DNA of 64,000 nucleotides from Armatimonadota bacterium. GTDB taxonomy: Bacteria; Armatimonadota; SYMT01. Shown in pieces: positions 49,238 through 64,000 of the stretch. The translations under genes and the position numbers were made by a program. The notes under the pieces were generated by a model, which was not told where the DNA came from, did not search any database, and saw nothing but the letters and a program-made list of their open reading frames with translations. The stretch is from assembly GCA_041690135.1 (NCBI GenBank), contig JAWLHY010000001.1, positions 64,001 to 128,000 of the forward strand, given 5' to 3'. Position 1 is the stretch's first letter; each line of letters starts with the position of its first letter.

Positions 49238-50515
49238 TCACCTCCGGATGATGGCGTCGCGGCGGGGGCCGACGGAGAGCCAGCGGATGGGGACCTGGAT
49301 CAGGCTCTCGATTCGCTCCACGTAGTCGCGGGCCGCGGCGGGAAGCTCCGCGTACTCCCGGATGCCGGAAATGTCGGTCTTCCAGCCGGGCAGGGTCTCG
49401 TAGACGGGCCGGGCCTTCTCCAGGCGGGCGTTGACCGGGAACTCCGTGGTCCTTTCGCCGTCCACCTCATAGGCGGTGCAGACGGGGATCTCGTCCCGGT
49501 AGCCGAGGACGTCGAGGAGGGTCAGCGCGACCTCCGTGGCGCCCTGGACGCGGCAGCCGTAGCGGGTGGCGACGGCGTCGAACCAGCCCATGCGGCGGGG
49601 GCGGCCGGTGGTGGCGCCGAACTCACCGGCGTCACCGCCCCGGGTGCGCAGCTCGTCACCTTCGGGCCCCTCGATCTCCGTAACGAACGGTCCGGCGCCC
49701 ACGCAGCTCGAGTAGGCCTTGGCGACGGCGATCACGCTGTCGATGGCGCCCACCGGCACGCCGGCGCCGACGGGAGCGTAACCGGCCAGGGTGGAAGAGG
49801 AAGTAGAAAAGGGATAGATGCCGTGGTCCGGATCCCGCAGGGCGCCGAGCTGTCCTTCCAGCAGGACCCGCTTCCCGGCGGCGAGCGCTTCGTGCAGGAG
49901 AAGGGTGGTGTCGCACACGAAGGGCCGGAGCTGGTCGGCCAGGGGGCTCAGCTCGTCGGCCAGGGCGCCGGCGTCAATCGGCTCGTGCCCGTACAACTCA
50001 CGGAAGAGGACGTTCTTCGGCTCCAGCGCCGTGGCAAGGCGGTCGCGCAGGCGCTCGGGGATCAGGAAGTCCGCGATCTGCACGCCCACCTTCAGGTATT
50101 TGTCCGCGTAAAACGGTGCAATCCCGGAGCGGGTGGAGCCGAACTTGCGGCTACCGAGGCGGTCTTCCTCCAGCCGGTCCAGCAGCACGTGGTACGGCAT
50201 CACCACCTGGGCGCGCTCGGAGACGCACAGCTTCGGCGCCGGCACCCCGCGCGAGGTGAGGCTTTCCACCTCCCGGACCAGCGCCGCTACGTCCACCGCC
50301 ACGCCGGGTCCGAGCACGTTGGTGACGTGCGGGTAGAAAACCCCGGAAGGCAGCAGGTGCAGGGCGAACTTGCCGTAGTGGTTGATGACTGTATGGCCCG
50401 CGTTGCTGCCCCCCTGGTAGCGGACGACGTAGTCCGCCTCGGCAGCAAAGCAGTCGGTCATCTTCCCTTTACCTTCGTCGCCCCAGTTGGCTCCTACGAT
50501 CGCGGTGGCGCTCAT
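49238..50515 (-). CDS. purA: Adenylosuccinate synthetase
   Basis: WGDEGKGK, QGGSNAGHT, GATTGRPRR, LSVGP. Confidence 0.97.
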   Translation of the reverse strand: MSATAIVGANWGDEGKGKMTDCFAAEADYVVRYQGGSNAGHTVINHYGKFALHLLPSGVFYPHVTNVLGPGVAVDVAALVREVESLTSRGVPAPKLCVSERAQVVMPYHVLLDRLEEDRLGSRKFGSTRSGIAPFYADKYLKVGVQIADFLIPERLRDRLATALEPKNVLFRELYGHEPIDAGALADELSPLADQLRPFVCDTTLLLHEALAAGKRVLLEGQLGALRDPDHGIYPFSTSSSTLAGYAPVGAGVPVGAIDSVIAVAKAYSSCVGAGPFVTEIEGPEGDELRTRGGDAGEFGATTGRPRRMGWFDAVATRYGCRVQGATEVALTLLDVLGYRDEIPVCTAYEVDGERTTEFPVNARLEKARPVYETLPGWKTDISGIREYAELPAAARDYVERIESLIQVPIRWLSVGPRRDAIIRR

Positions 50516-50663
50516 CCGTAACTCTCCCCATAAGAAACACTACGCTATTCAACTTCGGCAGGCAGCATCGCCTTCTCTCGCCGTGCCCACACATCTTTAA
50601 CCCACCCGACGATATAAATCCAGTGAATAATCGGAATGCAATCGATGCGCGTGAGGTATACCG

Positions 50664-51548
50664 GTGGAATTGTTTCAACTGCGGAGCCTGGTCCGGGTAG
50701 CGGAGGAGGGAAGCGTCACCCGCGCGGCGGAGTCGCTCTGCCTCACACAGCCGGCCGTCTCCCGTCACATCCAGGCGTTGGAGCAGGAGTTGGGCGTGAG
50801 CCTGTTCGAGCGGACGGAGCGGGGGATGCGGCTCACCCCGGCCGGCACGGCGCTGCGGGACCACGCCCGCCGGAGCCTGGCGATCCTGGAAGAGGGCCGG
50901 CGCCTCATCGCGGAGCTGGAGGACGGCGCCGCGGGTCGGCTGACCCTGGGGGCGGGAGTCACCACCAGCATCTTCCGCCTGCCGGCGCTGCTGCGCATCT
51001 TTCGGGAGGCCTACCCGCGCGTGGACGTGGTGGTGCGAACCGGTCGCAGCCGGGAGATCGCGCAGTTCGTGATGGACCGGGAGGTGGAAGTCGGCCTGGT
51101 CACCTCGCCGCAGCAATCCCCCGAGCTGGAGACGGTGGGGCTGTTCGACGAGGAGATCTTGCTGGTCACTCCGCCGGGGCTAGGACCCGCGGAGCCGGGA
51201 GAGCTCACGCCCGCGCAGTTCCAGTCGCTGCCCCTGATCCTCTTTTCCCGCAACACCGGGTTCCGGGGTTACCTGGACCGCGTCTTCAGCGAGAGCCAGC
51301 TCGCGCCCTCGGTGAAGATGGAGAGCGACAGCGTGGAGGCGATCAAGAGCTTCGTCACGGTAGGGCTGGGAGCTTCGTTCCTGCCGGAGTCCAGCGTGCG
51401 CGCGGAGATTGCCGCGGGCGCCCTTCACAGCCGGTGCGTGGAGCGGCTGCCCCGGCTCGCGCGGCGGACCTCCGCGATTTACCGGCGCGACCGGCAACTG
51501 CCGTTCGCGGCGCGCGAGTTCCTCCAGGTGCTCCAGCCCGGCGCTTAA
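50664..51548 (+). CDS. LysR family transcriptional regulator, divergent from purA
   Basis: GSVTRAAESLCLTQPAVSRHIQALEQELGVSLFER; LysR substrate domain. Confidence 0.95.
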   Translation: MELFQLRSLVRVAEEGSVTRAAESLCLTQPAVSRHIQALEQELGVSLFERTERGMRLTPAGTALRDHARRSLAILEEGRRLIAELEDGAAGRLTLGAGVTTSIFRLPALLRIFREAYPRVDVVVRTGRSREIAQFVMDREVEVGLVTSPQQSPELETVGLFDEEILLVTPPGLGPAEPGELTPAQFQSLPLILFSRNTGFRGYLDRVFSESQLAPSVKMESDSVEAIKSFVTVGLGASFLPESSVRAEIAAGALHSRCVERLPRLARRTSAIYRRDRQLPFAAREFLQVLQPGA

Positions 51549-51718
51549 CCCAGCGTTAATCTCGCGGAAATGCCTTCACAACCTGGGGATGCGATTTTAT
51601 ACCTCATGGTGTGAAGAGCGGGAGTGGAGCCGGTTCGGGAGTAGCACCGGCAGTGGATCGCGGCGGATCGCCTTGCCCACGGCCCCGCTCGAGAGAAGAA
51701 TTCAGGAAAGGAACACCC

Positions 51719-54382
51719 GTGATCGTTGAAGCCACACCGGGAAGCACGGACGAGCGCTCCCTGTTGCTGACCCTGGAGGAGATCAGCCACCTGGCCGCCC
51801 ACGACGGCGAGCCCACGGCCACGCTGCAGAACATCGTGCAATTGATCCAGGGCCGCTTCCGCACGGACGTTTGTTCCGTGTACCTGCTGGAGCCGGACCG
51901 GGCGCACCTGGTGCTCGCGGCGACGGTGGGCCTGCGCGCGGAGAGCGTGGGCAAGGTGCGGATGTCGCTGAAGGAGGGCCTGGCAGGACTGGTGGCGGAG
52001 CGGTTGGAGCCGGTGGTGGTGGCGGACGCCACTTCCCATCCGCGCTTCAAGTACTTCGAGGAGGCCGGAGAGGACCTCTACCACTCCTTCCTGGGCATTC
52101 CGCTGCTGGACGGCAACCTGATCCAGGGGGTGCTGGTGGTGCAAACCGCCGAGCCGCGCACCTTTTCGGAGGCGGAGGTGCGAATGCTGGTGGCCGCGAG
52201 CCGCCAGTTGGGGTCCGTGGTCTGCGAGGCGCGGGCGCAGCAGCAGTTTACCTCTCGGGCCCACGAGCGCCTCTGGGATCTGGCCCGCAACCTGTGGTGG
52301 AGCTGGTACCCGAACGGCGCGGATGTGTTCCGGGAGATCGATCCGGTGTTGTGGGGGGAGGTGCGGCACAACCCGGTCGCCTTCCTGAAGCAGATCCCGT
52401 ACAAGCAGTTAGAAGAGCTGGCGGGACAGATCATGCAGAACGGCCGCATCAACCACGAGCACCGGCGCCTCCAGGAGTACCTCCGCTCCGAGAAGACCTG
52501 GGGGGCGACCCACTGCGGCGTACTGCGCGCTCGCCCCGTGGCCTACTTCTCCGCGGAGTTCGGCCTGCACGAGTCGATGCCGATCTACTCCGGCGGCCTG
52601 GGGGTGCTGGCGGGGGACCACATCAAGAGCGCCTCGGACCTGGGTATCCCGCTGGTGGCGGTGGGCCTGCTCTACAAGGAAGGCTACTTCCGGCAGCGGA
52701 TCGACCAGACCGGTCTGCAGCAGGAAGAGTACCTCCGTGTGAAGACCGAGGAGCTTCCCCTGGAACTGGCGGTGGGGAAGGACGGTCGCCCGGTGGAGAT
52801 CCGCATCCACACCCGCGGCGGCAGCCTGGCCGCGCGCGTGTGGAAGGTGGCGGTGGGGCGGACCACCCTGCTGCTGCTGGACTCCGACGTGGAGGGGAAT
52901 GCCGCGGAGGACCGGGAGTTGACCGCCCGTCTCTATGGTGGCGACAACCGGGTGCGTATCCGCCAGGAGCTGCTGCTGGGTGTGGGCGGGGTCCACGCGC
53001 TGCGGGCGATGGGGATCCAGCCGGGCGTCCTGCATCTCAACGAGGGCCACAGCGCCTTCGCCCCGCTGGAGGTGATGCGGGAGCGGATGGCCTCCGAAGG
53101 CATCGGGTTCGATGAGGCGGCGCGGCGGGTGTCGCGGATGACGGTCTTCACCACGCACACGCCCGTGCCCGCGGGCCACGACCGCTTCTCCCCGGAACTG
53201 GTGGAAGAGCACCTCGGACCTCTGCGGGACGGCCTGGGGATCTCCTACGAGCACCTGGTCGGGCTGGGACGCGTGAACCCCTGGGACGGGGGCGAAGAGT
53301 TCTGCATGACGGTCCTCGCGCTGAAGCATTCCCGCCGGGCGAACGCGGTCTCGTCGCTGCACGGCGAGGTCTCGCGGTCGATGTGGTCCTGCATGTGGCC
53401 CGGTCGCCCCGAGGACGAAGTGCCGATCGGTCACATCACCAACGGCGTGCACGTGCTGACCTGGCTGGCGCCGGCCATGCACCAGACCTACTCCCGCTAC
53501 CTGGGGCCGAACTGGTTCGTCCGCAGCGGCGAGCCGGAGGTATGGGGCGAGATCGAAGGGGTGGACGACGGGGAGCTGTGGGAGACGCACGTCGCCCTGA
53601 AGGCCCGCCTGATCTCCTTTGTCCGGAAAGCGGCGGCGCGCCAGGCGGTGCGGCGCGGGGAGTCGCAGGAGGTGGTGGAGCAGCTCTGCCGGGCGATGAG
53701 CCTGGACGCGCTCACCATCGGCTTTGCCCGGCGGTTCGCCACCTACAAGCGGGCCAACCTGCTCTTCCACGACCTGGAGCGGATGGTGGAGCTGGTCAAC
53801 GACTCGCGCCGGCCGATCCAGATCGTCTTCGCCGGGAAGGCGCACCCGCGGGACTGGCCGGGCAAGGAGATGCTCCGGGAGATCTTCAAGGTCACCCGCG
53901 ACCCGCGGTTCCTCGGCAAGGTGGTATTCCTGGAGAACTACGACATCAACGTGGCTCGGCACCTGATCCAGGGTGTGGACGTGTGGCTCAACAACCCCCG
54001 GCGTCCCCTGGAGGCCTCCGGCACCAGCGGTCAGAAGGTGGTCCTCAACGGCGGCCTCAACCTCTCCGTCCTCGACGGCTGGTGGGCGGAAGCGTACGAC
54101 GGGGAGAACGGGTTTGCCATCGGCCACGGCGAAACCCACAGTAACCTGGAGATCCACGACCGCCGCGACACGGAAGCGCTCATGGAGACTCTCACCCGCG
54201 AGGTGATCCCCCTCTACTACCAGCGCGACCCGGACGGGCTGCCGCGGGCGTGGGTCGCCCGGATGAAGCGCGCCATCCGCACCCTCGGCTGGCGCTTCAA
54301 CGCGGACCGAATGGTGATGGATTACGTGAGGCACTGCTACGTCCCCGCCGCGGGAGGCACCTCGAGCGCGATGCCACGCTGA
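51719..54382 (+). CDS. glgP: Alpha-glucan phosphorylase with an N-terminal GAF domain
   Basis: YSGGLGVLAGD, HLNEGH, ARRFATYKR, PLP motif EASGTSGQK; N-terminal PtsP-like GAF (CSVYL, LAATVGL, EGLAGLV, SFLGIPL). Confidence 0.95.
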   Translation: MIVEATPGSTDERSLLLTLEEISHLAAHDGEPTATLQNIVQLIQGRFRTDVCSVYLLEPDRAHLVLAATVGLRAESVGKVRMSLKEGLAGLVAERLEPVVVADATSHPRFKYFEEAGEDLYHSFLGIPLLDGNLIQGVLVVQTAEPRTFSEAEVRMLVAASRQLGSVVCEARAQQQFTSRAHERLWDLARNLWWSWYPNGADVFREIDPVLWGEVRHNPVAFLKQIPYKQLEELAGQIMQNGRINHEHRRLQEYLRSEKTWGATHCGVLRARPVAYFSAEFGLHESMPIYSGGLGVLAGDHIKSASDLGIPLVAVGLLYKEGYFRQRIDQTGLQQEEYLRVKTEELPLELAVGKDGRPVEIRIHTRGGSLAARVWKVAVGRTTLLLLDSDVEGNAAEDRELTARLYGGDNRVRIRQELLLGVGGVHALRAMGIQPGVLHLNEGHSAFAPLEVMRERMASEGIGFDEAARRVSRMTVFTTHTPVPAGHDRFSPELVEEHLGPLRDGLGISYEHLVGLGRVNPWDGGEEFCMTVLALKHSRRANAVSSLHGEVSRSMWSCMWPGRPEDEVPIGHITNGVHVLTWLAPAMHQTYSRYLGPNWFVRSGEPEVWGEIEGVDDGELWETHVALKARLISFVRKAAARQAVRRGESQEVVEQLCRAMSLDALTIGFARRFATYKRANLLFHDLERMVELVNDSRRPIQIVFAGKAHPRDWPGKEMLREIFKVTRDPRFLGKVVFLENYDINVARHLIQGVDVWLNNPRRPLEASGTSGQKVVLNGGLNLSVLDGWWAEAYDGENGFAIGHGETHSNLEIHDRRDTEALMETLTREVIPLYYQRDPDGLPRAWVARMKRAIRTLGWRFNADRMVMDYVRHCYVPAAGGTSSAMPR

Positions 54383-54587
54383 ACGGATAAAGATGAAGAT
54401 AAGGATAAAGAGGTGGGTCGCGCCTCGGTGGTTGATGAGGCGTGACGGCGGCGCACGTGTCGATGCCGACGTAATGCGTATTGCGTGATGCGTAAGGGAA
54501 CCGTTGGCGTGTTGCGTGAGGCGTAATGTGTGAGGGGACGTAGTGGGCGGGTGCGGGGGCAGAGTGGGTGCCTCGCTTGAGCTCATG

Positions 54588-54650
54588 AGACGTAAGACGT
54601 AAGACGTAAGACGTAAGACGTAAGACGTAAGACGTAAGACGTGAAACGTG
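54588..54650. repeat. Heptamer tandem repeat (AGACGTA)~8
   Basis: Directly visible. Confidence 0.9.
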
Positions 54651-54781
54651 AGGCTCGGGGCAGGGCCGGTCCGATTGGCCAGGACGGGGTGCGCGGCACT
54701 TGCCGCGAACGCTCGCCCTGGCCCCATTGACACATCCGATGCGCCGTCCGGGAGGGTGGCAAGACTCGTCACTCAGGGTGG

Positions 54782-55191
54782 TGGGTTTGTCTTGCCAGGC
54801 GGTAGGCAGTTCGGGATCATGACCGGAGTCCCGCTGCCGGGTGCCCCTTGGGCGGGGGCCTTCGCGATAAGGGACTCCGGATCCAGTTGGGCCAAACCGC
54901 CCGCCGACCTTTGGGTCTCTGAAGCGGGGCGTTCGCGAATCGTGGTCCCCGGAAACCGTGCGAGTGAACCGTGTGTCGGCGTCTGGTCACCCTGGCGGGG
55001 GCGAGTCAGCCGTGGACAGGCTCCGGCAACCGGGTCGCGAAGGCCGGCCTCACAGCCGGACTCCGTCATGGGTCCCGAGGGTTCACCGGTAACCGGGACA
55101 GGCGTCAGAGTCTGGCATCCCCATCTCGTTAACCCACGAGCTAGCGCTGGGCAACTCGGGGTGGGCCGGTGGTTGGATATGAATTCCAGGC
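54782..55191 (+). ncRNA. Candidate large structured ncRNA, copy 1 (3'-truncated)
   Basis: Long-range helices 54817-54831/55058-55070 and 54857-54867/55035-55045; similar to copy 2 with structure-preserving changes; no credible ORF. Confidence 0.6.
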
Positions 55192-55257
55192 GTAGCCAGT
55201 GCGCGGTGAGCGCCGCCATCCACCTGGGCGAGATGCCTCCCCGACGGTGTGGAGTTG
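55192..55257 (+). pseudogene. Relic fragment of the downstream rplY-like gene
   Basis: 55210-55234 is identical (25 bp) to 56333-56357; flanks similar, with indels. Confidence 0.8.
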
Positions 55258-55263
55258 TGATGA

Positions 55264-55831
55264 TGGGCTTGTCTTGCCAGGCGGTAGGCTGAATTGGTTC
55301 ATGACCGGAGTCCCGCTGCGAGGCGGGCCTTCGCGATAAGCGATTCCGGATCCTATCGGAGTGAACCGCTCGCCGACCACGACTTCACAGACGGCAACGC
55401 ACTGGGTTTGGTAGACACGGCCTTTGGAAGTCTTAATCTCGGGATTGACGAGAGGTGAGCAGAACTCAAACCGCCGGCCTCAAGGGCAGGGACTCGTCTG
55501 GCATTGACGGGTGACGGCAACCGGGTCGCGAAGGCCGGCCTCACAGCCGGACTCCGTCATGAGTCCCGAGGGCTCACCGGTAACCGGGCCATGCGTTAAA
55601 GTCTGGCATCGCCATCTCGTTAACCCATCAGCTAACACTGGGTAACTGGGGGTGGGCTGTCGGTTGGGCATGGATTCCAGGCATACACAGTGGCTCCAAT
55701 CTGTCGGATCGGCCAAACTCCGGTATGATGAAGGCGAGATCCGAAACGGATCGGTGAAGCATTGGCGCGTTGCCCGTGGGGCCCCTGCTACTGGTGCTTG
55801 TTGAGCACTGGTGGTGGGGGCTTTCCGTTTT
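55264..55831 (+). ncRNA. Candidate large structured ncRNA / leader, copy 2 (up to ~570 nt)
   Basis: Helices 55299-55313/55549-55562 and 55326-55336/55526-55536; GNRA-type loops; GATCCGAAACGGATC hairpin; ends in a 19-bp stem. Confidence 0.65.
55781..55831 (+). terminator. Terminator-like 19-bp hairpin with a U-rich tail
   Basis: 55781-55799 pairs with 55803-55821 (6 G-U pairs, so it is valid only on the + strand), followed by TTTCCGTTTT. Confidence 0.55.
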
Positions 55832-55869
55832 CTGGCCCGGGCAGCCAACTTCAAGAAGGAGCACGCAGA

Positions 55870-56472
55870 ATGATCGGAACAGATCGCCCGCGGGTGACTG
55901 CTACCCCGCGACAGACCGGTAGCAAGGCGATGATCAAGGCCGTCCGCCGCAAGGGGGATGTGCCCGGGTCGCTCTACGGTCGGGACGTCGAACCCGTCTC
56001 CGTGCAGGTTTCGGCCCGCGTCCTGGGCGCTTATCTCGGTGCACACGGCTCGGGCGCTTTGATGGACCTGGACCTCGGTGGGCAGGTGATCCCCGTGGTC
56101 TTGAAGGAAGTCGATCGCGACGGGATGACCGGCGCCGTGTCGCATGTCTCGTTCCAGCGCATCGTGCTGAGCGAGGAACTGCAGGCCGCGATCCCCCTGC
56201 GATTTGAGGGGATCGACGAGCTGATCAAGAACGGACTGGTGCTGCAGACGCAGTTGGATGTGGTGGAGCTCCACGGCCGGGCGGACCGGCTCCCGGAAGT
56301 GCTGACGGTAGACGTGAGCCACTGCGCGGCGGGCGCCGCCATCCACCTGGGCGAGATCCCGCTTCCCGAAGGCGTGGAGCTGTCGCGAGATGCCACCATC
56401 GTTGCGGCCATCGTTACCTCGCCGCGAACGGGTGGTGAGGCGGCGACGGAAGCCGCTTTGCCGGAAGCCTAG
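55870..56472 (+). CDS. rplY: Ribosomal protein L25/Ctc family protein, divergent paralog
   Basis: VRRKGDVPGSLYG, VVLKEV, HVSF (canonical HxDF), C-terminal domain LPEVLTVDVS...IHLGEIPLPEGVEL; AAGGAG RBS. Confidence 0.88.
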   Translation: MIGTDRPRVTATPRQTGSKAMIKAVRRKGDVPGSLYGRDVEPVSVQVSARVLGAYLGAHGSGALMDLDLGGQVIPVVLKEVDRDGMTGAVSHVSFQRIVLSEELQAAIPLRFEGIDELIKNGLVLQTQLDVVELHGRADRLPEVLTVDVSHCAAGAAIHLGEIPLPEGVELSRDATIVAAIVTSPRTGGEAATEAALPEA

Positions 56473-56566
56473 TGAAATGTGGGGGGACGGGGTCGGGTAA
56501 TCGGTCTCGTCTCCCCCAAGGCGGGGCAACCGGAGTACCCACACCGGTTCTCCGCTTTGGTCTCTA

Positions 56567-57340
56567 TCAGTCCGGGGGCCCGGAGACCCACTTCAGACCA
56601 GAGGTCAGAAGAGAATGGGTGCTGGGGGTCTTCTCGGGGTGGGGACTAAAGCAGAGCACCCGGCCCATGCCAAAGCGGCCGGAAGCGATAGCGGTGGTGC
56701 CGATCATCACTCCGGAAGGGGCGCCCTTTTGTGCGATCTCGGACTCATAGGTCCCCAGGGGCTCGTAGTCCGGCACCTCCGGATCTCCGGCCGGGGCGAG
56801 GAGCGGTCCCTGCCAGTAGACGATCGTTTCCCGTTGCGAGGTCACGCCCAGGACTTTGCGGCCAGTCTCGGAGAGCCCCACCACCGTATCTCCATTGCCG
56901 CGTGCCCAGTGGGCCTTGTCGATCACCTTCGCGTCGAGGATGCGGAGCGACCAGGGGTAGTCGCAGGTCGCCAGGTAGGCGCCGGCGCAGATGCCGACGT
57001 AGCCGCCTCCCCCGCGCACGAACTCCCGGATCTTCTCGCGACCTTCTTCGCCCAGGGCGCGCCCCTGCCCGCCTCCGCTCCCTCCCGGCTGGATCAGCAC
57101 CTGGAAGCCCGCGAGCTTGCCGGCGCGGATCTCCTCGACCGTCACCGTCTCCACCTGGAAGTCCTTGAACTGCTCAAGAGCGGTGAGCAGGGTGCTCCGG
57201 CTGCGACTGGCACCCTGATCGGCGTACACGGCCACTCGCAGGGGAGACGGTGCTTCCGGTGCGGTGTCGGCGACTGCGGATGACAGCAGCCCCAGGATGC
57301 CCAGGGCGAGGCCGGTACTGCGAAAAGGAGGACGATACAT
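56567..57340 (-). CDS. Secreted BPL-N / class I glutamine amidotransferase-like protein
   Basis: QPGGSG, GICAGAY, SPHPE; signal peptide. Confidence 0.82.
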   Translation of the reverse strand: MYRPPFRSTGLALGILGLLSSAVADTAPEAPSPLRVAVYADQGASRSRSTLLTALEQFKDFQVETVTVEEIRAGKLAGFQVLIQPGGSGGGQGRALGEEGREKIREFVRGGGGYVGICAGAYLATCDYPWSLRILDAKVIDKAHWARGNGDTVVGLSETGRKVLGVTSQRETIVYWQGPLLAPAGDPEVPDYEPLGTYESEIAQKGAPSGVMIGTTAIASGRFGMGRVLCFSPHPEKTPSTHSLLTSGLKWVSGPPD

Positions 57341-57777
57341 GGCGGAGTTCCTCGAAAGGCGACGGTCTCAGGAATTGGCGGGAGTGACGGCGGCTTCCTG
57401 CTGGGAGTGTAGCGCAGTCACCTTAACGCATCCTGATGACAACGCGGTGGGAACGAACCACGAAGACACGAAGGACACGACGAAGGGGCAGAAAGGATGA
57501 AGATGCCTTCGGCCGACTTGGATGAGGATTACGATTATGATAAGGACCGCAGGGCACCAGAGAGCTGAGGGGTTAAAGAAGGAACTCGGTGTTGAGTGAG
57601 GATAATGAACACCACGGTAGAGAGCTCGCTCCATTCTTGAAGACGCGCGATCTTCCGCTTTCTTTTCATCCTCTTCCGCGTCCATCCCATACGGGCGCGG
57701 GAACATACGGTTCGTAATCTCTTTGGGGCATTCATCGCTCCCGTTGCTTTCGAGCATTCCCATCCAGGAAACTCGTC

Positions 57778-59334
57778 GTGAAACTTCGTCCTCTCCTCCT
57801 CTTCCCGGCGCTGGCGACCTGCGCCTCCGCCGCCTACTCCACCGCCGCCCAACAGTCGGGCCAGCCTTCCGCGCGGCCCAACGTGATCGTGATCCTGGCC
57901 GATGATATCGGCTATGGGGATGTGAGCTGCTACGGTGCGAAGCGGGTGAAGACGCCCAACCTCGACCGCCTGGCAGCGCAGGGGCTGCGGTTCACGGACG
58001 GGCACGCGCCCTCGGCGACCTGTACGCCGACGCGCTACTCCCTCCTTACCGGAGAGTATGCCTGGCGGAAGAAGGGCACCGGGATCCTGCCCGGCAACGC
58101 CGGCCTGATCATCCCGACGGAAGGGGTCACCCTGCCCTCCATGCTGAAGCGGGCCGGGTACGCCACGGCGGTGGTGGGCAAGTGGCACCTGGGCCTGGGC
58201 GCGGAGACCGGGAAGCAGGATTGGAACGCGGAGGTGAAGCCGGGCCCGCGCGAGATCGGGTTCGACTACTCCTTCCTGGTGCCGGCGACGGGCGACCGCA
58301 CCCCCTGCGTGTACATGGAGAACCAGCGGGTGGTGGGCCTCGACCCCACGGACCCGATCGAGGTCCGGTACGGGATGAAGGTCGGCACCGATCCCACGGG
58401 CCGGGAGAACCCCGAACTCCTGAAGATGAAGCCGAGCCACGGCCACGACCAGACCATCGTCAACGGGATCAGCCGCATCGGCTACATGACCGGCGGGAAG
58501 GCCGCACGGTGGGTGGACGAGGACATGGCCGACACCATCACCCGCAAGGCGGTCGCCTTCCTGGAGCGGAGCGCCCCGAAGAGCCGGGAGCAGCCATTCT
58601 TCCTCTTCCTCCCCACCCACGACATCCATGTGCCCCGCGTCCCACATCCGCGCTTCGTGGGGAAGAGCGGCATGGGACCCCGCGGCGATGCCCTGCTGCA
58701 GTTCGACTGGACCGTCGGCGAGGTGATGGCCACCCTCGACCGCCTGAAGGTGGCGCGGAACACGTTGGTGATCGTGAGCAGCGATAACGGTCCCGTGGTT
58801 GACGACGGCTACCAGGACCAGGCGGTGGAGAAGTTGGGCGACCATGACCCCACGGGCCCCCTGCGCGGCGGGAAGTACAGCAACTTCGAAGCCGGGACCC
58901 GCGTGCCGTTCCTCGTCCGGTGGCCGGACCGAGTAAAGCCCGGCGTCAGTGACGCCCTGGTGTGTCAGATCGACCTCCTCGCCAGCCTGGCCGCCCTCAC
59001 CGGCCAGAAGCTCCCGCTGGAGGCGGCTCCCGACAGCTTTAACGTGCTGCCGGCACTCCTCGGCGATGCCAAAGAGGGCCGCGATCACCTTTTCGAACAC
59101 GCCGGCCAGGTGTCCGTCCGTAAGGGGAGTTGGAAGTACATCCCCCCGAGCCGGGGACCGCGAGTGCAGGCGAACACGGGAACCGAGCTGGGCAACGATC
59201 CGCGGGGACAACTCTACGACCTGAGCACCGACCTGGGGGAAACGAAGAACCTGATTGCCGAACGTCCCGAGATTGCCGCCGCCCTCGCCGCCCTGCGGGA
59301 GAAGGGGATGCGGGAGTCCCGAACCAGCCCTTGA
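57778..59334 (+). CDS. Arylsulfatase-family sulfatase
   Basis: PNVIVILADDIG, CTPTR (formylglycine motif), GKWHLG, SDNG. Confidence 0.95.
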   Translation: MKLRPLLLFPALATCASAAYSTAAQQSGQPSARPNVIVILADDIGYGDVSCYGAKRVKTPNLDRLAAQGLRFTDGHAPSATCTPTRYSLLTGEYAWRKKGTGILPGNAGLIIPTEGVTLPSMLKRAGYATAVVGKWHLGLGAETGKQDWNAEVKPGPREIGFDYSFLVPATGDRTPCVYMENQRVVGLDPTDPIEVRYGMKVGTDPTGRENPELLKMKPSHGHDQTIVNGISRIGYMTGGKAARWVDEDMADTITRKAVAFLERSAPKSREQPFFLFLPTHDIHVPRVPHPRFVGKSGMGPRGDALLQFDWTVGEVMATLDRLKVARNTLVIVSSDNGPVVDDGYQDQAVEKLGDHDPTGPLRGGKYSNFEAGTRVPFLVRWPDRVKPGVSDALVCQIDLLASLAALTGQKLPLEAAPDSFNVLPALLGDAKEGRDHLFEHAGQVSVRKGSWKYIPPSRGPRVQANTGTELGNDPRGQLYDLSTDLGETKNLIAERPEIAAALAALREKGMRESRTSP

Positions 59335-59469
59335 AGTACTGTTGGCAAACCGCAAGCTGGCGCCTGTCGCCACAACCTACGCTCTCGGGTAGAATCCAGA
59401 AGGGTGGCCAGACATCCTGAACCAACGTGAAGGCACCCTAGGCCATAGAGTAGTGAGGCGAGGTGCGTG

Positions 59470-59751
59470 ATGCCCACCATCACGGTGAAAGTGGAGATCC
59501 CAGAAGAGTTGCGGGAACAGTTTGCTGCACGCGTCCGAGCCCACGGAGGCGACCAGAGCGGTTATATTCGCGAAGTCCTGGAGCGTGAGTTGCGCACACC
59601 AAGTCCTGACCCGCAAATGACGTTCCGTGAGATCTTCGCGCCGGCAGAAGAGGGATTCCAGGCGACTGGAATGAGCGAAGAGGATCTGGTCGAATTCACG
59701 GAAGAGGAGATCAAGCGCTACCGCGCGGAGCGCCGGATGCGAGAGGCATAG
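59470..59751 (+). CDS. Putative ribbon-helix-helix antitoxin
   Basis: TITVKVEIPEEL...SGYIREVLERE; directly upstream of the PIN gene. Confidence 0.7.
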   Translation: MPTITVKVEIPEELREQFAARVRAHGGDQSGYIREVLERELRTPSPDPQMTFREIFAPAEEGFQATGMSEEDLVEFTEEEIKRYRAERRMREA

Positions 59752-59753
59752 CG

Positions 59754-60239
59754 ATGGTTGAGCCGCCTAAGCCCATCGTGATCTTTGATACCGGTGTGGT
59801 GCTGCAGGCGGTGCTTAACCCCATGGGACCGGCCGCCGACGCACTTTCCCAGTTTGATGGGGACCGCGTGTCCGTATACTTGAGCCCGCGCTTACGCAGC
59901 GAGTGGGAAGATGTGCTCATGCGTCCATCCATTCGGGCCAAGAACCGGAGCGTAACAGACGCGTAGGTCCGAGCGGCGCTGGACCGCTTCGACCGGCGTG
60001 CAGTGATGGTTCCGAACGCGCCCACCCATTACGCCTTTCCACGAGATCGGGATGATGAGCCGGTCATCAATCTAGCCATCCACGTAAAGGCTACCTATAT
60101 TGTCAGCCGTGATCGTGATTTACTCGATCTGATGGATCCGAGTCGCTCGGAGGGTCGAGAGTTTCTGCAGCGCTTCCCGCGGCTAAGGATCCTTGATCCA
60201 GTTGCGTTCGTGATGGCTCTGGATGGCACGCCTGGGTAG
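59754..60239 (+). pseudogene. PIN-domain toxin with an in-frame TAG stop at 59964-59966
   Basis: VIFDTGV...RDRDDE...IVSRDRDLL all lie in one frame across a single stop. Confidence 0.85.
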
Positions 60240-60278
60240 ACAACGCTTCGCGTCTGGTGAGACATCGACGCAGCACCG

Positions 60279-61178
60279 CTACCGATTGATCTCCGTAGCA
60301 GTGATGTGTTCCGCGACGAGGAGGTTGCCTTCGGCAAAAAGGAACGCTTGCTCCTCCGGCCGGGGAGAGCGGAACCGGAGGAACTCGTCCTCGCCAACCT
60401 GGGAAGTGTGCCCCGGCTCGATGCGGGCTCTGGACGTGCGGAGGTAGTCGAGGACGGAGCAGAACGTTTCGAAGGTGCTCTGGCCGTGGTCGTGCGAGGG
60501 GGTGTGCATGGCCAGGTCCGGCAGGTTCAGCAGCGGGCATCCGAACGTCCGCATCCAGACCCCAGGTACACCCGGGACGTCTCCTTTGACGAAGCCGGCG
60601 TACAGCATCAGCAGCGGGAAAGCGCGCAGCAGGGCCAGCATATTCTTGTCATTGCCGGGTGCAAACACGCCGATGGGCAGGGAAGTCCGCGCGCTCTCGT
60701 TGGCGACAAGCAGGGCGCCCTGCGGCCCGAGGCAACCGGCCACCGCGGCCAGTGCGACGTACTGCTCCAGCGGGTCGGATTCGTAACCCGCGTAGTAGAG
60801 CAGGAGGTGGGACTTCGCCTGGCGGGCCTGCTGCTTCAGCTCCTGGGGGTAATGGGCGGGAGCGACTACCGTCTCCACCACCTGCGGCGGCATCGGGGCG
60901 TTGAAGCCGACCAGCCGGATCACGTGCTTTCCCCAGCCGACCAGGCCCAACGGCGTGCCCTGCGCAGCCGTGGCCGTGTCCAGCTCGCACCTTGCTCCCC
61001 TCATGTCGCGGTGGTACTGCCGCAGGGTGGCGGTCAGCGCTTCCGGGTCGAGTGTTAACGCGCCGGGGAAGAGAATCTGAAGGCTGAGCGGTTTCTCCAG
61101 GGCGGGGTTCGCCGTGAGAGGGCCGGAAGCCTCGGGACCGCTGTCCTTACGGCCGAAGAAGCGTTCGAAGAGGCCCAT
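60279..61178 (-). CDS. DUF4261-like protein
   Basis: MGLFERFFG start with AAAGGAG RBS; WMRTFG...LPDL...YL...GHT C-terminal motif. Confidence 0.75.
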   Translation of the reverse strand: MGLFERFFGRKDSGPEASGPLTANPALEKPLSLQILFPGALTLDPEALTATLRQYHRDMRGARCELDTATAAQGTPLGLVGWGKHVIRLVGFNAPMPPQVVETVVAPAHYPQELKQQARQAKSHLLLYYAGYESDPLEQYVALAAVAGCLGPQGALLVANESARTSLPIGVFAPGNDKNMLALLRAFPLLMLYAGFVKGDVPGVPGVWMRTFGCPLLNLPDLAMHTPSHDHGQSTFETFCSVLDYLRTSRARIEPGHTSQVGEDEFLRFRSPRPEEQAFLFAEGNLLVAEHITATEINR

Positions 61179-61349
61179 GGGGTCTCCTTTCATGGGGAGG
61201 GGAAGCGCGGTGATTTCCCCCAGGATACCGCGCCCCGGTGGAAAGCCGCAGCCGGTTTGCGCTGCGGGGCGCACGAACCGGGCGGAAAGGGATACGTGCC
61301 CCGGAACGCGAACCTCCGTTCAGGATGTAGTTGGATCCGGAGGCATCAA

Positions 61350-61901
61350 ATGAAACGAACACGACGCGACGCGATGGCGACGGGGGCACTGCTGGTTCTG
61401 GGGCTGTCCGCGGGGATCGGATTGCCGCCGGCCGCCGCCCAGGAAACGGAAGATGAGAAGAAGCTGCTGAAGGTCGGCCAGGTGGCGCCGGACTTCACCC
61501 TGCCCCTGGTGACCGGCGGCGAGGTGACCCTGGGGAACCTGCTCAAGTTCGGTAAGGCGGTTCTCGTCGGCTTTTGGGGCATCGAGGAAGAAGACGGCGG
61601 CACGGAACTGGCAATGGTCCAGAAACTGCACAACGACATGCAGGCTAAGGGCCTGACCACCATCACCATCAACCCGGTCGATCCCATCGGCGACGTGCGC
61701 GACCACCTGAAGGAAGAGAAGATCGAGATCCAGGTCGCCATCGACGGCAAGGAGACGAACCGTGCCGTCACCAACGTCTACAAAGCGAAGAAGCTGCCGA
61801 CCTACTACCTCCTCGACCCGGACGGCAAGGTGCTGTGGCGCGGTATCGGCTACAAGGACGCGGTCCTGCGCGAGGCGCTCGCCAAAGCCGGCGTGAAATA
61901 G
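61350..61901 (+). CDS. TlpA/redoxin-fold protein lacking the CXXC motif
   Basis: KVGQVAPDFTL, VLVGFW, LPTYYLLDPDGKV; twin-Arg-like signal TRRDAM; no Cys. Confidence 0.85.
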   Translation: MKRTRRDAMATGALLVLGLSAGIGLPPAAAQETEDEKKLLKVGQVAPDFTLPLVTGGEVTLGNLLKFGKAVLVGFWGIEEEDGGTELAMVQKLHNDMQAKGLTTITINPVDPIGDVRDHLKEEKIEIQVAIDGKETNRAVTNVYKAKKLPTYYLLDPDGKVLWRGIGYKDAVLREALAKAGVK

Positions 61902-62262
61902 GTCGGCCGAGGCGTCCTCACCACAGAGGCACGGAGACACGGAGAAGACCACGGAGAGGGGAAGAGGAGAACCAGGTAGCAGAGCCCCTGGTGGGCGTTG
62001 GTCACGGTACGCGCTTGGAGTTTCCCGGGCTACCGTCTGATCACGGCCTGCCTGTCCTGGTCACGGTCTGGGCAATGGGGATCTCGGGCCCTGGTCGTGG
62101 GGACGGTGATCCTGCCCGGCGTGCGAACCCAGCACGCGGAATTCCGTGATTCGTTGTCGGGGTGGGGGGCGTGATGCGTGTCTCTGGCTCACACGATCGG
62201 CCGTGGGGGGCACGGAACCACGGAAGAGGGAAAAGGGAAGCGGATTGGGACAGCATCGTAGC

Positions 62263-63558
62263 ATGGGGGGCTGGGCGCGGGCCGGCCTGGCGCTGGCATT
62301 GATCGTACCGGCCGGGGCCACGCTGGCGGCGGACTGGCCGCACTGGCGCGGGCCGCAGCGCGCGGGCCTCACCACCGAGCTTTCCGGTTGGTCCGGCACG
62401 GCCTGGGCGGTCCGGCAGCCCGCCTGGAACGTGAGCCTGGGCCAGGGCTCTACCTCTCCCCTGGTGGTGGGGGACCGCGTCTACACCGCTGGTTGGGGAG
62501 GCGAGAAGGACCACGTCTACTGCCTCGATACCGCCACGGGCAAGACGGTGTGGGAACAGGCGTACCCCGCGCCCCGGTTCGGGCGCCACGCGATGGGTGA
62601 CCAGAACTTCTACTCCGGGATCTCCGCCAGCCCCGAGTATGATCCCGCCACCGGCTACCTCTACACCCTCGGGGCCGACGGCGCCCTCCACTGCTGGAAC
62701 ACGAAAGAGGGCGGGAAGCCGGTCTGGAACCTGAACCTCTACGACCAATACGGTGTCCCCCGCCGTCCCCAGGCGACCCGTCGCGGCGGTAGCCATCGCG
62801 ACTACGGCTACACCAGCGCGCCACTGGTGCACCAGGACTGGCTGATTGTGGAGGTTGGCGACGACGAGGGCGCCCTGATGGCTTTCGACAAGCGCACCGG
62901 CGAGCGCCGCTGGGCCTCCGAGAGCAAAGTCCCCGCAGGGCACTCCGGGGGACCGGTCCCGGTCACCGTCGAAGGCGTGCCGTGCGTGGCGGTCTACACC
63001 CTCCAGGGCCTCCTGGTCACCCGCCTCGACCCTCCGAACGCCGGCAAGACCGTGGCGGAATACGAGTGGATCACCGACTTCGCCAACAACATCCCCACGC
63101 CGGCGGTCCACGGCAGCAGCGTGCTGCTCACCTCCAACTACAACCAGCGCAAGATCGCCCGCCTCGACGTGACCCTCTCCGGCGCGAAGAAAGCCTGGGA
63201 GCAGCCGCTTTCTTCCGGCGTCTGCAGCCCCGTAGTCTACAAGGGCCACGTCTACTTCGCCAGCCGGGGCCTCAAGTGCTTCGACTTCAACTCCGGCGAG
63301 CTGAAGTGGGAGGGCGGCCGCTTTGGCGATGTGGCATCCCTGGTGGTGACCGGCGACGGCCGGCTGGTAGTCTGGGCCAACGAAGGCGACCTCGCCCTGG
63401 CCGAGACCGCGGAGCGCTCCCCGAACCAGTACACCGAACTGGCCTTCCTGCCCCGGATGTTCGCCACCGAAGTGTGGCCCCACGTCGTGCTTGCCAACGG
63501 CCGCCTCTACTGCAAGGACCGGGCGGGTAACCTGCGCTGCTTCGCCACCCGGCCGTAG
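62263..63558 (+). CDS. PQQ-binding-like beta-propeller protein
   Basis: DWPHWRGP, CLDTATGKTVW, PVV motifs, LANGRLY. Confidence 0.9.
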   Translation: MGGWARAGLALALIVPAGATLAADWPHWRGPQRAGLTTELSGWSGTAWAVRQPAWNVSLGQGSTSPLVVGDRVYTAGWGGEKDHVYCLDTATGKTVWEQAYPAPRFGRHAMGDQNFYSGISASPEYDPATGYLYTLGADGALHCWNTKEGGKPVWNLNLYDQYGVPRRPQATRRGGSHRDYGYTSAPLVHQDWLIVEVGDDEGALMAFDKRTGERRWASESKVPAGHSGGPVPVTVEGVPCVAVYTLQGLLVTRLDPPNAGKTVAEYEWITDFANNIPTPAVHGSSVLLTSNYNQRKIARLDVTLSGAKKAWEQPLSSGVCSPVVYKGHVYFASRGLKCFDFNSGELKWEGGRFGDVASLVVTGDGRLVVWANEGDLALAETAERSPNQYTELAFLPRMFATEVWPHVVLANGRLYCKDRAGNLRCFATRP

Positions 63559-63887
63559 GGGTCCTTACCGCAAAGACGCAAAGAACCGCAAAGGGCCGCG
63601 GAGAGTAGACCGGAAGAAACAAGATGGATAGGATCAGCAGGATGTCGCGATCGTAGGCTATATAGGCCGTCTCGGTGTGCACGCCCGACCCAGGCGCCGG
63701 ACAGGGATCGAGATGCGGTCGTGGTCAACAAGAACTGATCCTGGTGCATGCCCGGAGTCCTCGAGATCTCGGGGACTGAAGTTGTCTTGTTCTCATTCCC
63801 TCCAGGATGCGCCCGCGGAAGACGCTTAAGCACGGGGTTGGGGCTTGACCAGGGACGGGGTGCCGCCGGGCCGGCCGGGGAAATAGT

Positions 63888-64000
63888 TCAAGTGAACCGC
63901 TGCGGCTGGTCTTTGAGCGGCAGCTCCATCCAGAAGGGAAGAGGCCCCAGCTCCGCTTCCGCACACAGGGCTTTCAACTCCTGGCGCTCCCCTTCCGGGG
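63888..64000 (-). CDS. Possible 3' end of a gene entering from beyond the window
   Basis: Open frame PEGERQELKALCAEAELGPLPFWMELPLKDQPQRFT-stop. Confidence 0.35.
   Translation of the reverse strand, partial: PEGERQELKALCAEAELGPLPFWMELPLKDQPQRFT

Follow-up and report, generated by a model that had tools for sequence, protein, structure and literature searches.

The two-domain ribosomal proteins of the bL25/TL5/Ctc family include TL5 of Thermus thermophilus (1FEU) and the ribosome-bound bL25 of Streptomyces, Pseudomonas and Mycobacterium. In Bacillus subtilis the family is represented by Ctc, which we take to be the sole L25 homologue of that species and to be under a stress sigma factor. Passages of PMC4408793 describe Ctc as being made only under stress. 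An L25 leader of the ribosomal protein type (r-leader) has been reported for Enterobacteria only, according to passages of PMC7247131. Duplicates of ribosomal proteins (r-proteins) with their own regulation are kept beside the primary copy in other cases, as described in parts of PMC7363858 and PMC7431078; the retained bacterial paralogs are mostly known as zinc-dependent small proteins, and the available passages of that literature give paralog pairs without mentioning bL25. Here we analysed the gene at positions 55870-56472 of a 64,000-nucleotide (nt) stretch of an Armatimonadota genome (9.1 Mb in 25 contigs, G000 in our sample; the stretch, called the window, is C1:64001-128000). Our results showed that this gene is a retained and selected paralog of the bL25 gene rplY. 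Its product has kept the RNA-binding face intact, and the gene is preceded by a leader that is private, conserved and closed by a terminator-like hairpin. We read the protein, with a probability of roughly 0.55, as a lineage-restricted alternative bL25 that would be made conditionally from its own promoter and an attenuator-type leader, and that would still bind loop E of 5S rRNA as a protein of the 50S subunit. No description of such a paralog clade, or of an L25 leader outside Enterobacteria, was found in the accessible parts of the open-access literature searched.

A second bL25 gene in one family of the phylum

The window protein is a member of the bL25/Ctc family by its domains, its fold and its equivalog model. 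Residues 10-95 matched PF01386 (Ribosomal_L25p) with 57.2 bits and residues 104-184 matched PF14693 (Ribosomal_TL5_C) with 62.9 bits, the Pfam cut-offs being 23.6 and 27, respectively. The protein scored 107 bits with the NCBIfam equivalog TIGR00731 (bL25_bact_ctc; cut-off 73.1) and stayed under every cut-off of the narrower NCBIfam sub-models PRK05618.x. Its start methionine is the same methionine as in the homologues. The AlphaFold2 model, for which an alignment of 15 sequences was the input, had a mean pLDDT of 83.6 and a pTM of 0.69. The best Foldseek match of this model was the ribosome-bound two-domain bL25 chain 9qt5_V (E 3.3e-19), and TL5 bound to a 5S rRNA fragment (chain 1feu_A) was found at E 4.3e-17, with TM values of 0.65-0.74 across these matches. 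The original prediction had recognised an L25/Ctc protein with HVSF in place of HxDF and DRDG in place of QxHP, and the domains, the equivalog and the alignment to solved chains confirmed it.

A search of the genome with TIGR00731 gave three matches at E <= 10, two of which were above the cut-off. One was the canonical rplY on contig C5 (gene C5:332328-333014, equal to L001:1462-2148; 228 amino acids (aa)), which matched at C5:332367-332876 with 125.6 bits, and the other was the window gene, with a lower score of 106.9 bits. The third match (14.9 bits, E 0.08) was not an L25. The genome therefore holds a second, canonical rplY, for which the original prediction had advised a search, and the window gene is not its only copy. 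The C5 and window proteins were 42% identical. Among 41 related genomes, two full-length copies of bL25 were present in this genome only; the two matches in G026 were halves at contig ends. In a wider sample of 401 genomes of the phylum, 47 matched the window protein at E <= 1e-20, two copies were again found only here, and the top identity to a foreign protein was 43%. When 5.8 billion protein clusters were searched with the window protein, 35 proteins were returned at E <= 1e-10. Nine of these (the window protein itself included; the database proteins of this clade are P0002-P0009) formed a tight set of 195-201 aa with 58-100% identity, and the next proteins followed at 45% and 44%, one of them named by its source as an Armatimonadota L25. 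Two of the database relatives bear the name Armatimonadota. The search for related loci in metagenome contigs returned nine loci, among which L040 (on a 35-kb contig) and L041 were the only clade members; both came from one metagenome, and their proteins were 59% and 58% identical to the window protein. The same kind of search in genome contigs gave only one irrelevant weak match.

Two trees were calculated, the first with 29 rows and the second with 39 rows, in which 15 canonical relatives (P0037-P0049 are canonical relatives) and L040 were added and the outgroups L014, L016, L018, L023, L026 and L029 were left out. The support of the paralog clade was 100/100 in both trees (9 rows in the first; 10 rows, which were the nine database clusters and L040, in the second), and its stem branch was long (0.49-0.50). 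The clade was placed at the unresolved base of the canonical bL25 radiation of the family (31 rows, 90/91), within the clade of the order (32 rows, 100/99). For the C5 copy, the neighbours were the single-copy rplY of G004, G005 and G006, three genomes of the family. The separate paralog clade and the place of the C5 copy among these single-copy genes make the window gene a paralogous variant, as had been predicted, and not the orthologous rplY of the lineage, and the trees indicate that it arose by duplication inside one family of the phylum.

The histories of the two copies mirrored each other. The identity ladder was 91/75/73/71% for the canonical proteins and 86/64/64/63% for the paralogs, and the canonical subtree ((C5,P0037),(P0038,(P0039,P0040))) corresponded to the paralog groups (window,P0002) and (P0003,(P0004,P0007)). 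Since both the ladders and the subtrees agree, the same organisms appear to carry both copies of bL25, and the paralog seems to evolve about 1.7 times faster. This agreement bears on another explanation, in which the members of the paralog clade would simply be the ordinary and only bL25 of a sister lineage that has been sampled poorly. This genome would then have gained its copy by horizontal transfer, and the protein would have no special function in the lineages of its origin. Such a transfer is favoured by the absence of any other clade carrier among the 401 sampled genomes of the phylum, by the lack of synteny around the gene between the window and L040, and by the fact that this genome is the only one in which both copies were seen together directly. 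However, the mirrored ladders and subtree shapes suggest joint vertical descent, the clade is nested in the bL25 radiation of the family itself, and the gene carries the relic of a local tandem duplication. We consider the transfer improbable, and even if it had taken place, the protein would be ribosomal all the same.

The paralog is under purifying selection. The comparison of L040 with L041 gave a dN/dS of 0.09 at a dS of 0.77, the comparison of the window with L040 gave 0.26, and 57 columns, located in both domains, were invariant in the alignment of nine members. These values are difficult to reconcile with a redundant recent duplicate that drifts to loss and has no distinct role. The decayed fragment of the same gene that adjoins it at 55194-55260 does show that duplicates decay at this locus, and the clade is rare, with nine clusters in 5.8 billion. 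However, the frame was intact in all 10 clade members, the leader was conserved together with the invariant columns, and the internal identity of the clade (56-86%) shows long retention, which makes drift highly improbable. In addition to its faster evolution, the paralog was set apart by its C-terminus. The canonical clade had a conserved acidic tail of ~40 aa (P-A/S-D-V-E-A-A-L-E/D-A-E-E-A-A, followed by an E-rich part), whereas the paralog stopped 10-16 aa past the C-domain and had no acidic or low-complexity tail. The net charge was similar in both clades, from +2 to +5 for the N-domain and from -4 to -9 for the C-domain.

RNA-contact residues, loop E and gene context

The HVSF and DRDG motifs are located at residues 92-95 and 82-85 of the window protein, respectively. 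In phmmer alignments with the ribosome-bound bL25 chains, HVSF was aligned to HLDF, HIDF or HVDL and DRDG to QRHP or QRDP, and the canonical C5 copy read DRDP and HLGF at the same sites. The motif alignment contained 71 bL25 rows, of which 53 were outside the order and the paralog clade (one of these being the same gene fetched twice). At position 94, which is the Asp of HxDF, the 11 rows of the paralog clade had Ser (6), Gly (4) or Ala (1), and the seven canonical copies from the family and its sister family in the order, C5 included, all had Gly. The other 53 rows had Asp in 47 cases, Thr in three, Ser in two and Gln in one. The deviation from Asp94 is real but recurrent. Position 82, the Gln of QxHP, was Asp or Glu in both the paralog and the canonical clade of the family. 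The five residues of TL5 that contact 5S rRNA, with buried contacts, are presumably Arg, Arg, Tyr, His and Asp at alignment positions 14, 26, 36, 92 and 94. Residues R14, R26, Y36 and H92 were invariant in all 11 paralog rows, and the canonical sisters were less conserved, with the Tyr in two and the His in four of their seven rows. The paralog keeps four of these five contact residues, so that the full set is not present.

The altered motif had been proposed as the sign of a non-ribosomal paralog repurposed to bind the upstream RNA. This argument did not survive the comparison. The replacement of Asp by Gly or Ser and of Gln by Asp or Glu also occurred in the C5 copy and in all seven canonical copies of the family and order, which argues that the motif change predates the duplication; the four other contacts are held more conservatively in the paralog than in its canonical sisters, and nothing in the alignment points to a loss of 5S binding. 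The 5S rRNA itself was consistent with this. The five 5S genes of this genome differed only at position 23, outside loop E, and no 5S heterogeneity that could pair with the two forms of bL25 was found. Loop E of this genome read GAGGGUA / AAGAGUA, and most other families of the phylum had GAUGGUA / GAGAGUA. Three other genomes of the family had a 5S match: loop E deviated in G001 and G005, and in G002 the GAUGGUA was kept on the 5' strand while the 3' strand deviated. Because the Asp change is shared with the canonical copies and loop E deviates in the family, the motif fits co-evolution with 5S rRNA and not lost 5S binding. The simplest reading would be that bL25 and loop E changed together in the family before the duplication. 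Such a family-wide loss of an "invariant" Asp together with a changed loop E offers a natural experiment on the co-evolution of the L25-loop E interface.

A related pattern was seen elsewhere in the phylum. Families without a TIGR00731 match for bL25 (for example G012, G027, G022, G035, G031 and G016) had another loop E, GAAAAUA or GAAGAUA with GAAAAUA, and in G040 a loop E of this kind occurred beside a bL25 that diverges strongly (S14, Q36, HATF). The pattern resembles a phylum-wide co-evolution or co-loss of bL25 and loop E, as far as the sequences can tell.

The gene was correctly described as lying outside the common prs-rplY-pth context, and this had been taken as a further mark of repurposing. 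In this genome prs and pth are adjacent on contig C4 (C4:202929-204447) with no rplY in between. When the prs and pth proteins were compared with 36 loci using tblastn, pth flanked rplY in seven and prs in seven, all of them in other families of the phylum; the same comparison found neither gene beside either copy here, beside the single copies of the family and order, or beside L040 and L041. Since prs and pth are adjacent here while other families have rplY between or beside them, rplY would have moved out of the cluster in an ancestor of this order or family. The context does not single out the window gene, because the canonical C5 copy and the single-copy rplY of the family also lie away from prs and pth; rplY is in any case an independent transcription unit, according to parts of PMC4408793. 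The deviating motif and the position away from prs and pth both characterise the lineage, and neither is a mark of repurposing.

The genes around the paralog differed between the window and L040 or L041, with no shared synteny. In the window, the plus-strand gene at 51611-54382 encodes an alpha-glucan phosphorylase of 923 aa that carries a GAF domain at its N-terminus (GAF, DUF3417 and Phosphorylase), an unusual fusion of sensor and enzyme. In L040, a 118-aa RRM-domain protein with a Gly-rich tail (L040:3221-3574, minus strand; PF00076, 64.6 bits) is encoded divergently to the paralog, and no RRM gene adjoins the window copy. The RRM gene and the paralog are separated by 425 nt, a spacer that was very highly conserved between L040 and L041.

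The leader of the paralog and the repeats beyond it

The last ~135 nt or so before the ATG (~55724-55869) form a leader that was common to all three paralog loci with readable context, which are the window, L040 and L041. The order of its parts was the same in all three: TATGAT, a 5-bp hairpin (P1), the block AAGCATTG-R-CGC-R-TTG, a ~20-bp hairpin (P2), a U-rich tract with TTTTCTGG, the Shine-Dalgarno (SD) sequence and the ATG (Table 1). The TATGAT box was not called in a consensus promoter scan, and no -35 region or type of sigma factor could be assigned to it. P2 was found at the same position with a different sequence in L040 and L041. In the proposed structure 92.8% of the cells pair, compared with 39-51% when the partners were slid, and 6 of the 23 pairs were changed on both sides, which was matched by 2 of 500 shuffles; the structure was derived from the same three sequences that were used for this test of pairing. 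L040 and L041 were 91% identical over the 220 nt upstream, although 48% of their synonymous sites differed. Among sequencing runs, the locus was found in no RNA run and in only two DNA runs, each with a small share. These runs, which are other metagenomes, gave short contigs over the leader and only parts of the gene; 1 difference was counted in the match to 55716-55866 and 10 in that to 55658-55877.

The leader was private to the paralog. Its architecture was found in none of the five canonical upstream regions inspected, that of the C5 copy included, and the conserved block had no second copy in the 9.1-Mb genome when one mismatch was allowed. Across the 401 genomes, the 16-nt block at the same tolerance gave scattered single matches, about as many as its reversed control among the rows inspected, and this search was not used as evidence. 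A covariance model of the leader scored 82.5 bits at the leader itself and 30.4 bits at the next match in the genome, and it found nothing in the six of six family genomes that have no paralog. Rfam gave no match at E <= 1 in 50000-64000 and none at the gathering score in the whole window. In L040 3000-4800, the Rfam matches at E <= 5 were 10, all at 3067-3192 and outside the leader, the best being Thr_leader with 27.1 bits against a gathering score of 55. The weak matches of the covariance model at C2:51864-51959 (30.4 bits), in G012 (31.7), in G007 (25) and in G011 (22) were rejected as generic hairpins followed by U-tracts, none of which precedes an L25 gene; the G012 match overlaps the 3' end of an upstream open reading frame (ORF) and is probably the terminator of that gene. 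Two of these weak matches resembled each other: C2:51864-51959 (L113:1501-1596) and G007 C211:20500-20614 (L116) both had GCAUUAACG, a U-tract and a hairpin whose loop region read GCUAG(U/C)GCCUUA, and they precede an unannotated small ORF and a 389-aa secreted-looking protein, respectively. They could be chance matches or a distantly related element that contains a terminator.

The layout of P1, the conserved block, and the terminator-like hairpin with its U-tract suggests a control by premature termination versus read-through. In L040, the upstream RRM gene is read in the opposite direction, so that the plus-strand hairpin cannot be its terminator. We regard the leader as a candidate new cis-regulatory RNA, and in a phylum with almost no described regulatory RNAs it would be a compact and testable attenuator.

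Table 1. Coordinates of the features at the paralog locus (window positions; nt, nucleotides; CDS, coding sequence)
Feature	Position	Strand	Remarks
REP-like tandem unit 1	54779..55260		palindrome pair 54824-54867 (+), 55035-55065 (-)
Relic of paralog 3' part	55194..55260	+	end of unit 1; 55194-55237 91% identical to 56317-56360, likeness ~25 nt further (to 56385)
REP-like tandem unit 2	55261..55697		palindromes 55306-55336 (+), 55526-55556 (-)
TATGAT, -10-like box	55724..55729	+	invariant in window, L040, L041; putative promoter element
Leader hairpin P1 (GATCC-GAAAC-GGATC)	55738..55752	+	3/4 shared pairs changed on both sides, window vs L040/L041
Conserved leader block AAGCATTGGCGCGTTG	55757..55772	+	AAGCATTGACGCATTG in L040, L041
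Leader hairpin P2 (~20 bp) and T-rich tract	55778..55834	+	terminator/attenuator-like; z = -3.9; ~35 nt 5' of ATG
Shine-Dalgarno-like AAGGAG	55857..55862	+	7 nt 5' of ATG; read from sequence
bL25/Ctc paralog CDS	55870..56472	+	ATG start, TAG stop, 200 aa; L25p N-domain and TL5_C C-domain; no acidic tail

The leader occupies only the end of an intergenic stretch of 1.49 kb, which extends from the end of the phosphorylase gene (54382) to the ATG at 55870 and consists of three parts. At 54588-54642 the heptamer AGACGTA is repeated in 7.9 tandem copies. Perfect heptamer arrays of the GCATTGG type were also present elsewhere in the genome (for example at C3:92928-92990 and C4:295223), and such arrays look like a feature of this genome; the AGACGTA array was matched by many unrelated metagenome contigs. 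The second part (54779-55697) is composed of two tandem units of ~490 nt each with a mean column identity of 81%. Each unit contains an inverted pair of a 31-nt imperfect palindrome of the form CGGAGTCC-hairpin-CCTTCGCGA, which is similar to repetitive extragenic palindromic (REP) elements and whose hairpin occurs in the compensatory variants CCGGC/GCCGG and CCCGC/GCGGG. At <=2 mismatches the genome contained 37 copies of the palindrome, 20 of them forward and 17 reverse, and none of its reversed control, and at the same threshold there were no copies in 20 relatives, six of which belong to the same family. Arrays were found at five other loci (C1:242637-244028, C1:1171562-1172128, C3:643321-643995, C3:692973-693569 and C5:380883-381430) with a spacing of ~150-300 nt. 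Four of the five were strictly alternating, and the C5 array was +---. The sequence between the palindromes differed from array to array, and the unit sequence outside the palindrome had no other match in the genome. Unit 1 closes with a remnant of the paralog's 3' coding region, from which it follows that array and gene were duplicated in tandem as one piece and that the upstream copy of the gene has since decayed. A protein-coding function of the units was rejected because the minus-strand 148-aa ORF of unit 1 (54773-55219) was not kept in unit 2, where the ORFs had 63-79 aa. The region 54779-55697 is a REP-type repeat private to this genome and not a conserved RNA partner.

These results bear on the original proposal that the protein left the ribosome to bind the upstream RNA. 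A conserved structured element does lie directly upstream in three of three readable paralog loci, and most of the RNA-like sequence upstream turned out to be the REP array. In the proposed form, the paralog would be off 5S rRNA and the ribosome and would constitute a stand-alone ribonucleoprotein with a trans-acting upstream RNA. The terminator in the upstream element fits this proposal in so far as termination there would free an RNA of ~100 nt, and the element occurs nowhere else in the genome above 31 bits; the stem branch of 0.5, the evolution at a faster rate than the canonical copy and the loss of the acidic tail could also be quoted in its favour. However, the cited motif change is also found in the canonical copies, and the four other contacts do not vary within the clade. 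The C-domain is as conserved as the N-domain, and 5S binding by L25 requires the N-domain only. No loop-E mimicry was found when the leader was inspected by eye; it has no internal loop of that kind, P2 being a continuous helix whose sequence differs between the lineages. The larger upstream region is private to this genome, and a terminated leader right before a gene is the usual signature of cis-regulation and not of a separate RNA gene. A stand-alone ribonucleoprotein is quite unlikely. The earlier interpretation was partly right, in that a paralog with an RNA element in front of it exists, and its motif and context arguments fail.

A more specific version of the alternative bL25 reading is an autogenous r-leader, in which the paralog or free bL25 would bind its own leader and promote termination at P2. 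A comparable autogenous control of termination is exerted by L4 on the leader of S10. Paralog and leader strictly co-occur, the conservation of the leader is far above that of synonymous sites, and L25 of E. coli represses its own mRNA through a conserved hairpin in the 5' untranslated region (UTR), as described in passages of PMC4408793 and of the review PMC10931766. However, the passages of the same two sources describe autogenous control only for the short one-domain L25 with a weak SD, whereas the gene here has a strong AAGGAG and two domains. The leader resembles neither loop E of 5S rRNA nor the L25 leader of Enterobacteria (no Rfam match at E <= 1), no leader of this kind precedes the canonical C5 copy, and the regulator might equally be another protein, a small RNA or a metabolite. 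We regard autogenous control as a tentative and rather unlikely refinement. A similarly doubtful suggestion is that the paralog and its ~100-nt private leader form a self-contained regulatory module, in which the protein would bind P1 and the GCAUUG-N2-GCRUUG block and switch the P2 terminator, or, in a variant, the terminated leader would persist as a small RNA that titrates the protein. If it is real, this module would contain the first known r-protein leader of a two-domain bL25, and also the first that acts by attenuation.

The proposed alternative bL25 and known systems

In the mechanism that we favour, for a conditionally made alternative bL25, the transcript would start a few nt past TATGAT and begin with a leader of roughly 100-135 nt. 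Transcription would terminate at P2 by default, with conditional read-through into the paralog gene. The paralog would then replace or supplement the canonical bL25 on 5S rRNA in the central protuberance of the 50S subunit, and the resulting ribosomes would have no acidic bL25 tail. Ribosome association, conditional expression and attenuation are predictions. Several observations weigh against this reading. The Asp94 is missing in the window paralog, and a member of the paralog clade was found in only one of the 401 sampled genomes of the phylum. The paralog and the canonical copy were seen directly together in this genome alone, and elsewhere their coexistence is read from the mirrored trees. 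The leader comparison represents two independent lineages (the window; L040 with L041) and two short contigs, so that the covariation evidence is thin. The faster evolution of the paralog and the absence of the conserved tail would also fit a changed, non-ribosomal role. Finally, P2 could end an upstream transcript instead of acting as an attenuator. If the reading is correct, the possible sources of ribosome heterogeneity would come to include a 5S-binding protein of the central protuberance, in the form of a bL25 paralog that is conserved and has a leader of its own.

The paralog is most similar to the two-domain proteins of the TL5 type, with which it shares the Pfam domains, TIGR00731, the fold, and the Arg, Arg, Tyr and His contact positions. 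It differs from them in the Ser for the Asp of HxDF and the Asp for the Gln of QxHP, both of which also occur in the canonical copies of the family, and in being a second copy in its genome without an acidic or low-complexity C-terminal tail. Ctc of B. subtilis is likewise a two-domain L25 homologue, and its conditional production is what is proposed here for the paralog. Unlike Ctc, the paralog coexists with a constitutive-looking canonical copy, and its control would be exerted through the leader and attenuator. The alternative r-protein paralogs of zinc-responsive alternative ribosomes, such as bL31B, bL36B and bS18B, are similar in that a duplicate is retained beside the primary copy, but the bL25 paralog has no Cys motif or zinc logic. 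In the enterobacterial L25 r-leader, the rplY 5' UTR operator, a conserved hairpin likewise precedes an independent rplY (passages of PMC4408793 and PMC7247131). The leader found here does not match it in sequence or structure and precedes a long two-domain L25; the enterobacterial leader acts by translational repression with a weak SD, whereas the terminator-like hairpin, the U-tract and the strong SD of this leader point to transcription attenuation. The far-upstream region, in turn, resembles palindromes of the REP type and of bacterial interspersed mosaic elements (BIMEs), with a 31-nt palindrome in both orientations and often in +-+- arrays, and it is distinguished from them by the tandem duplication of the array together with a piece of the paralog gene.

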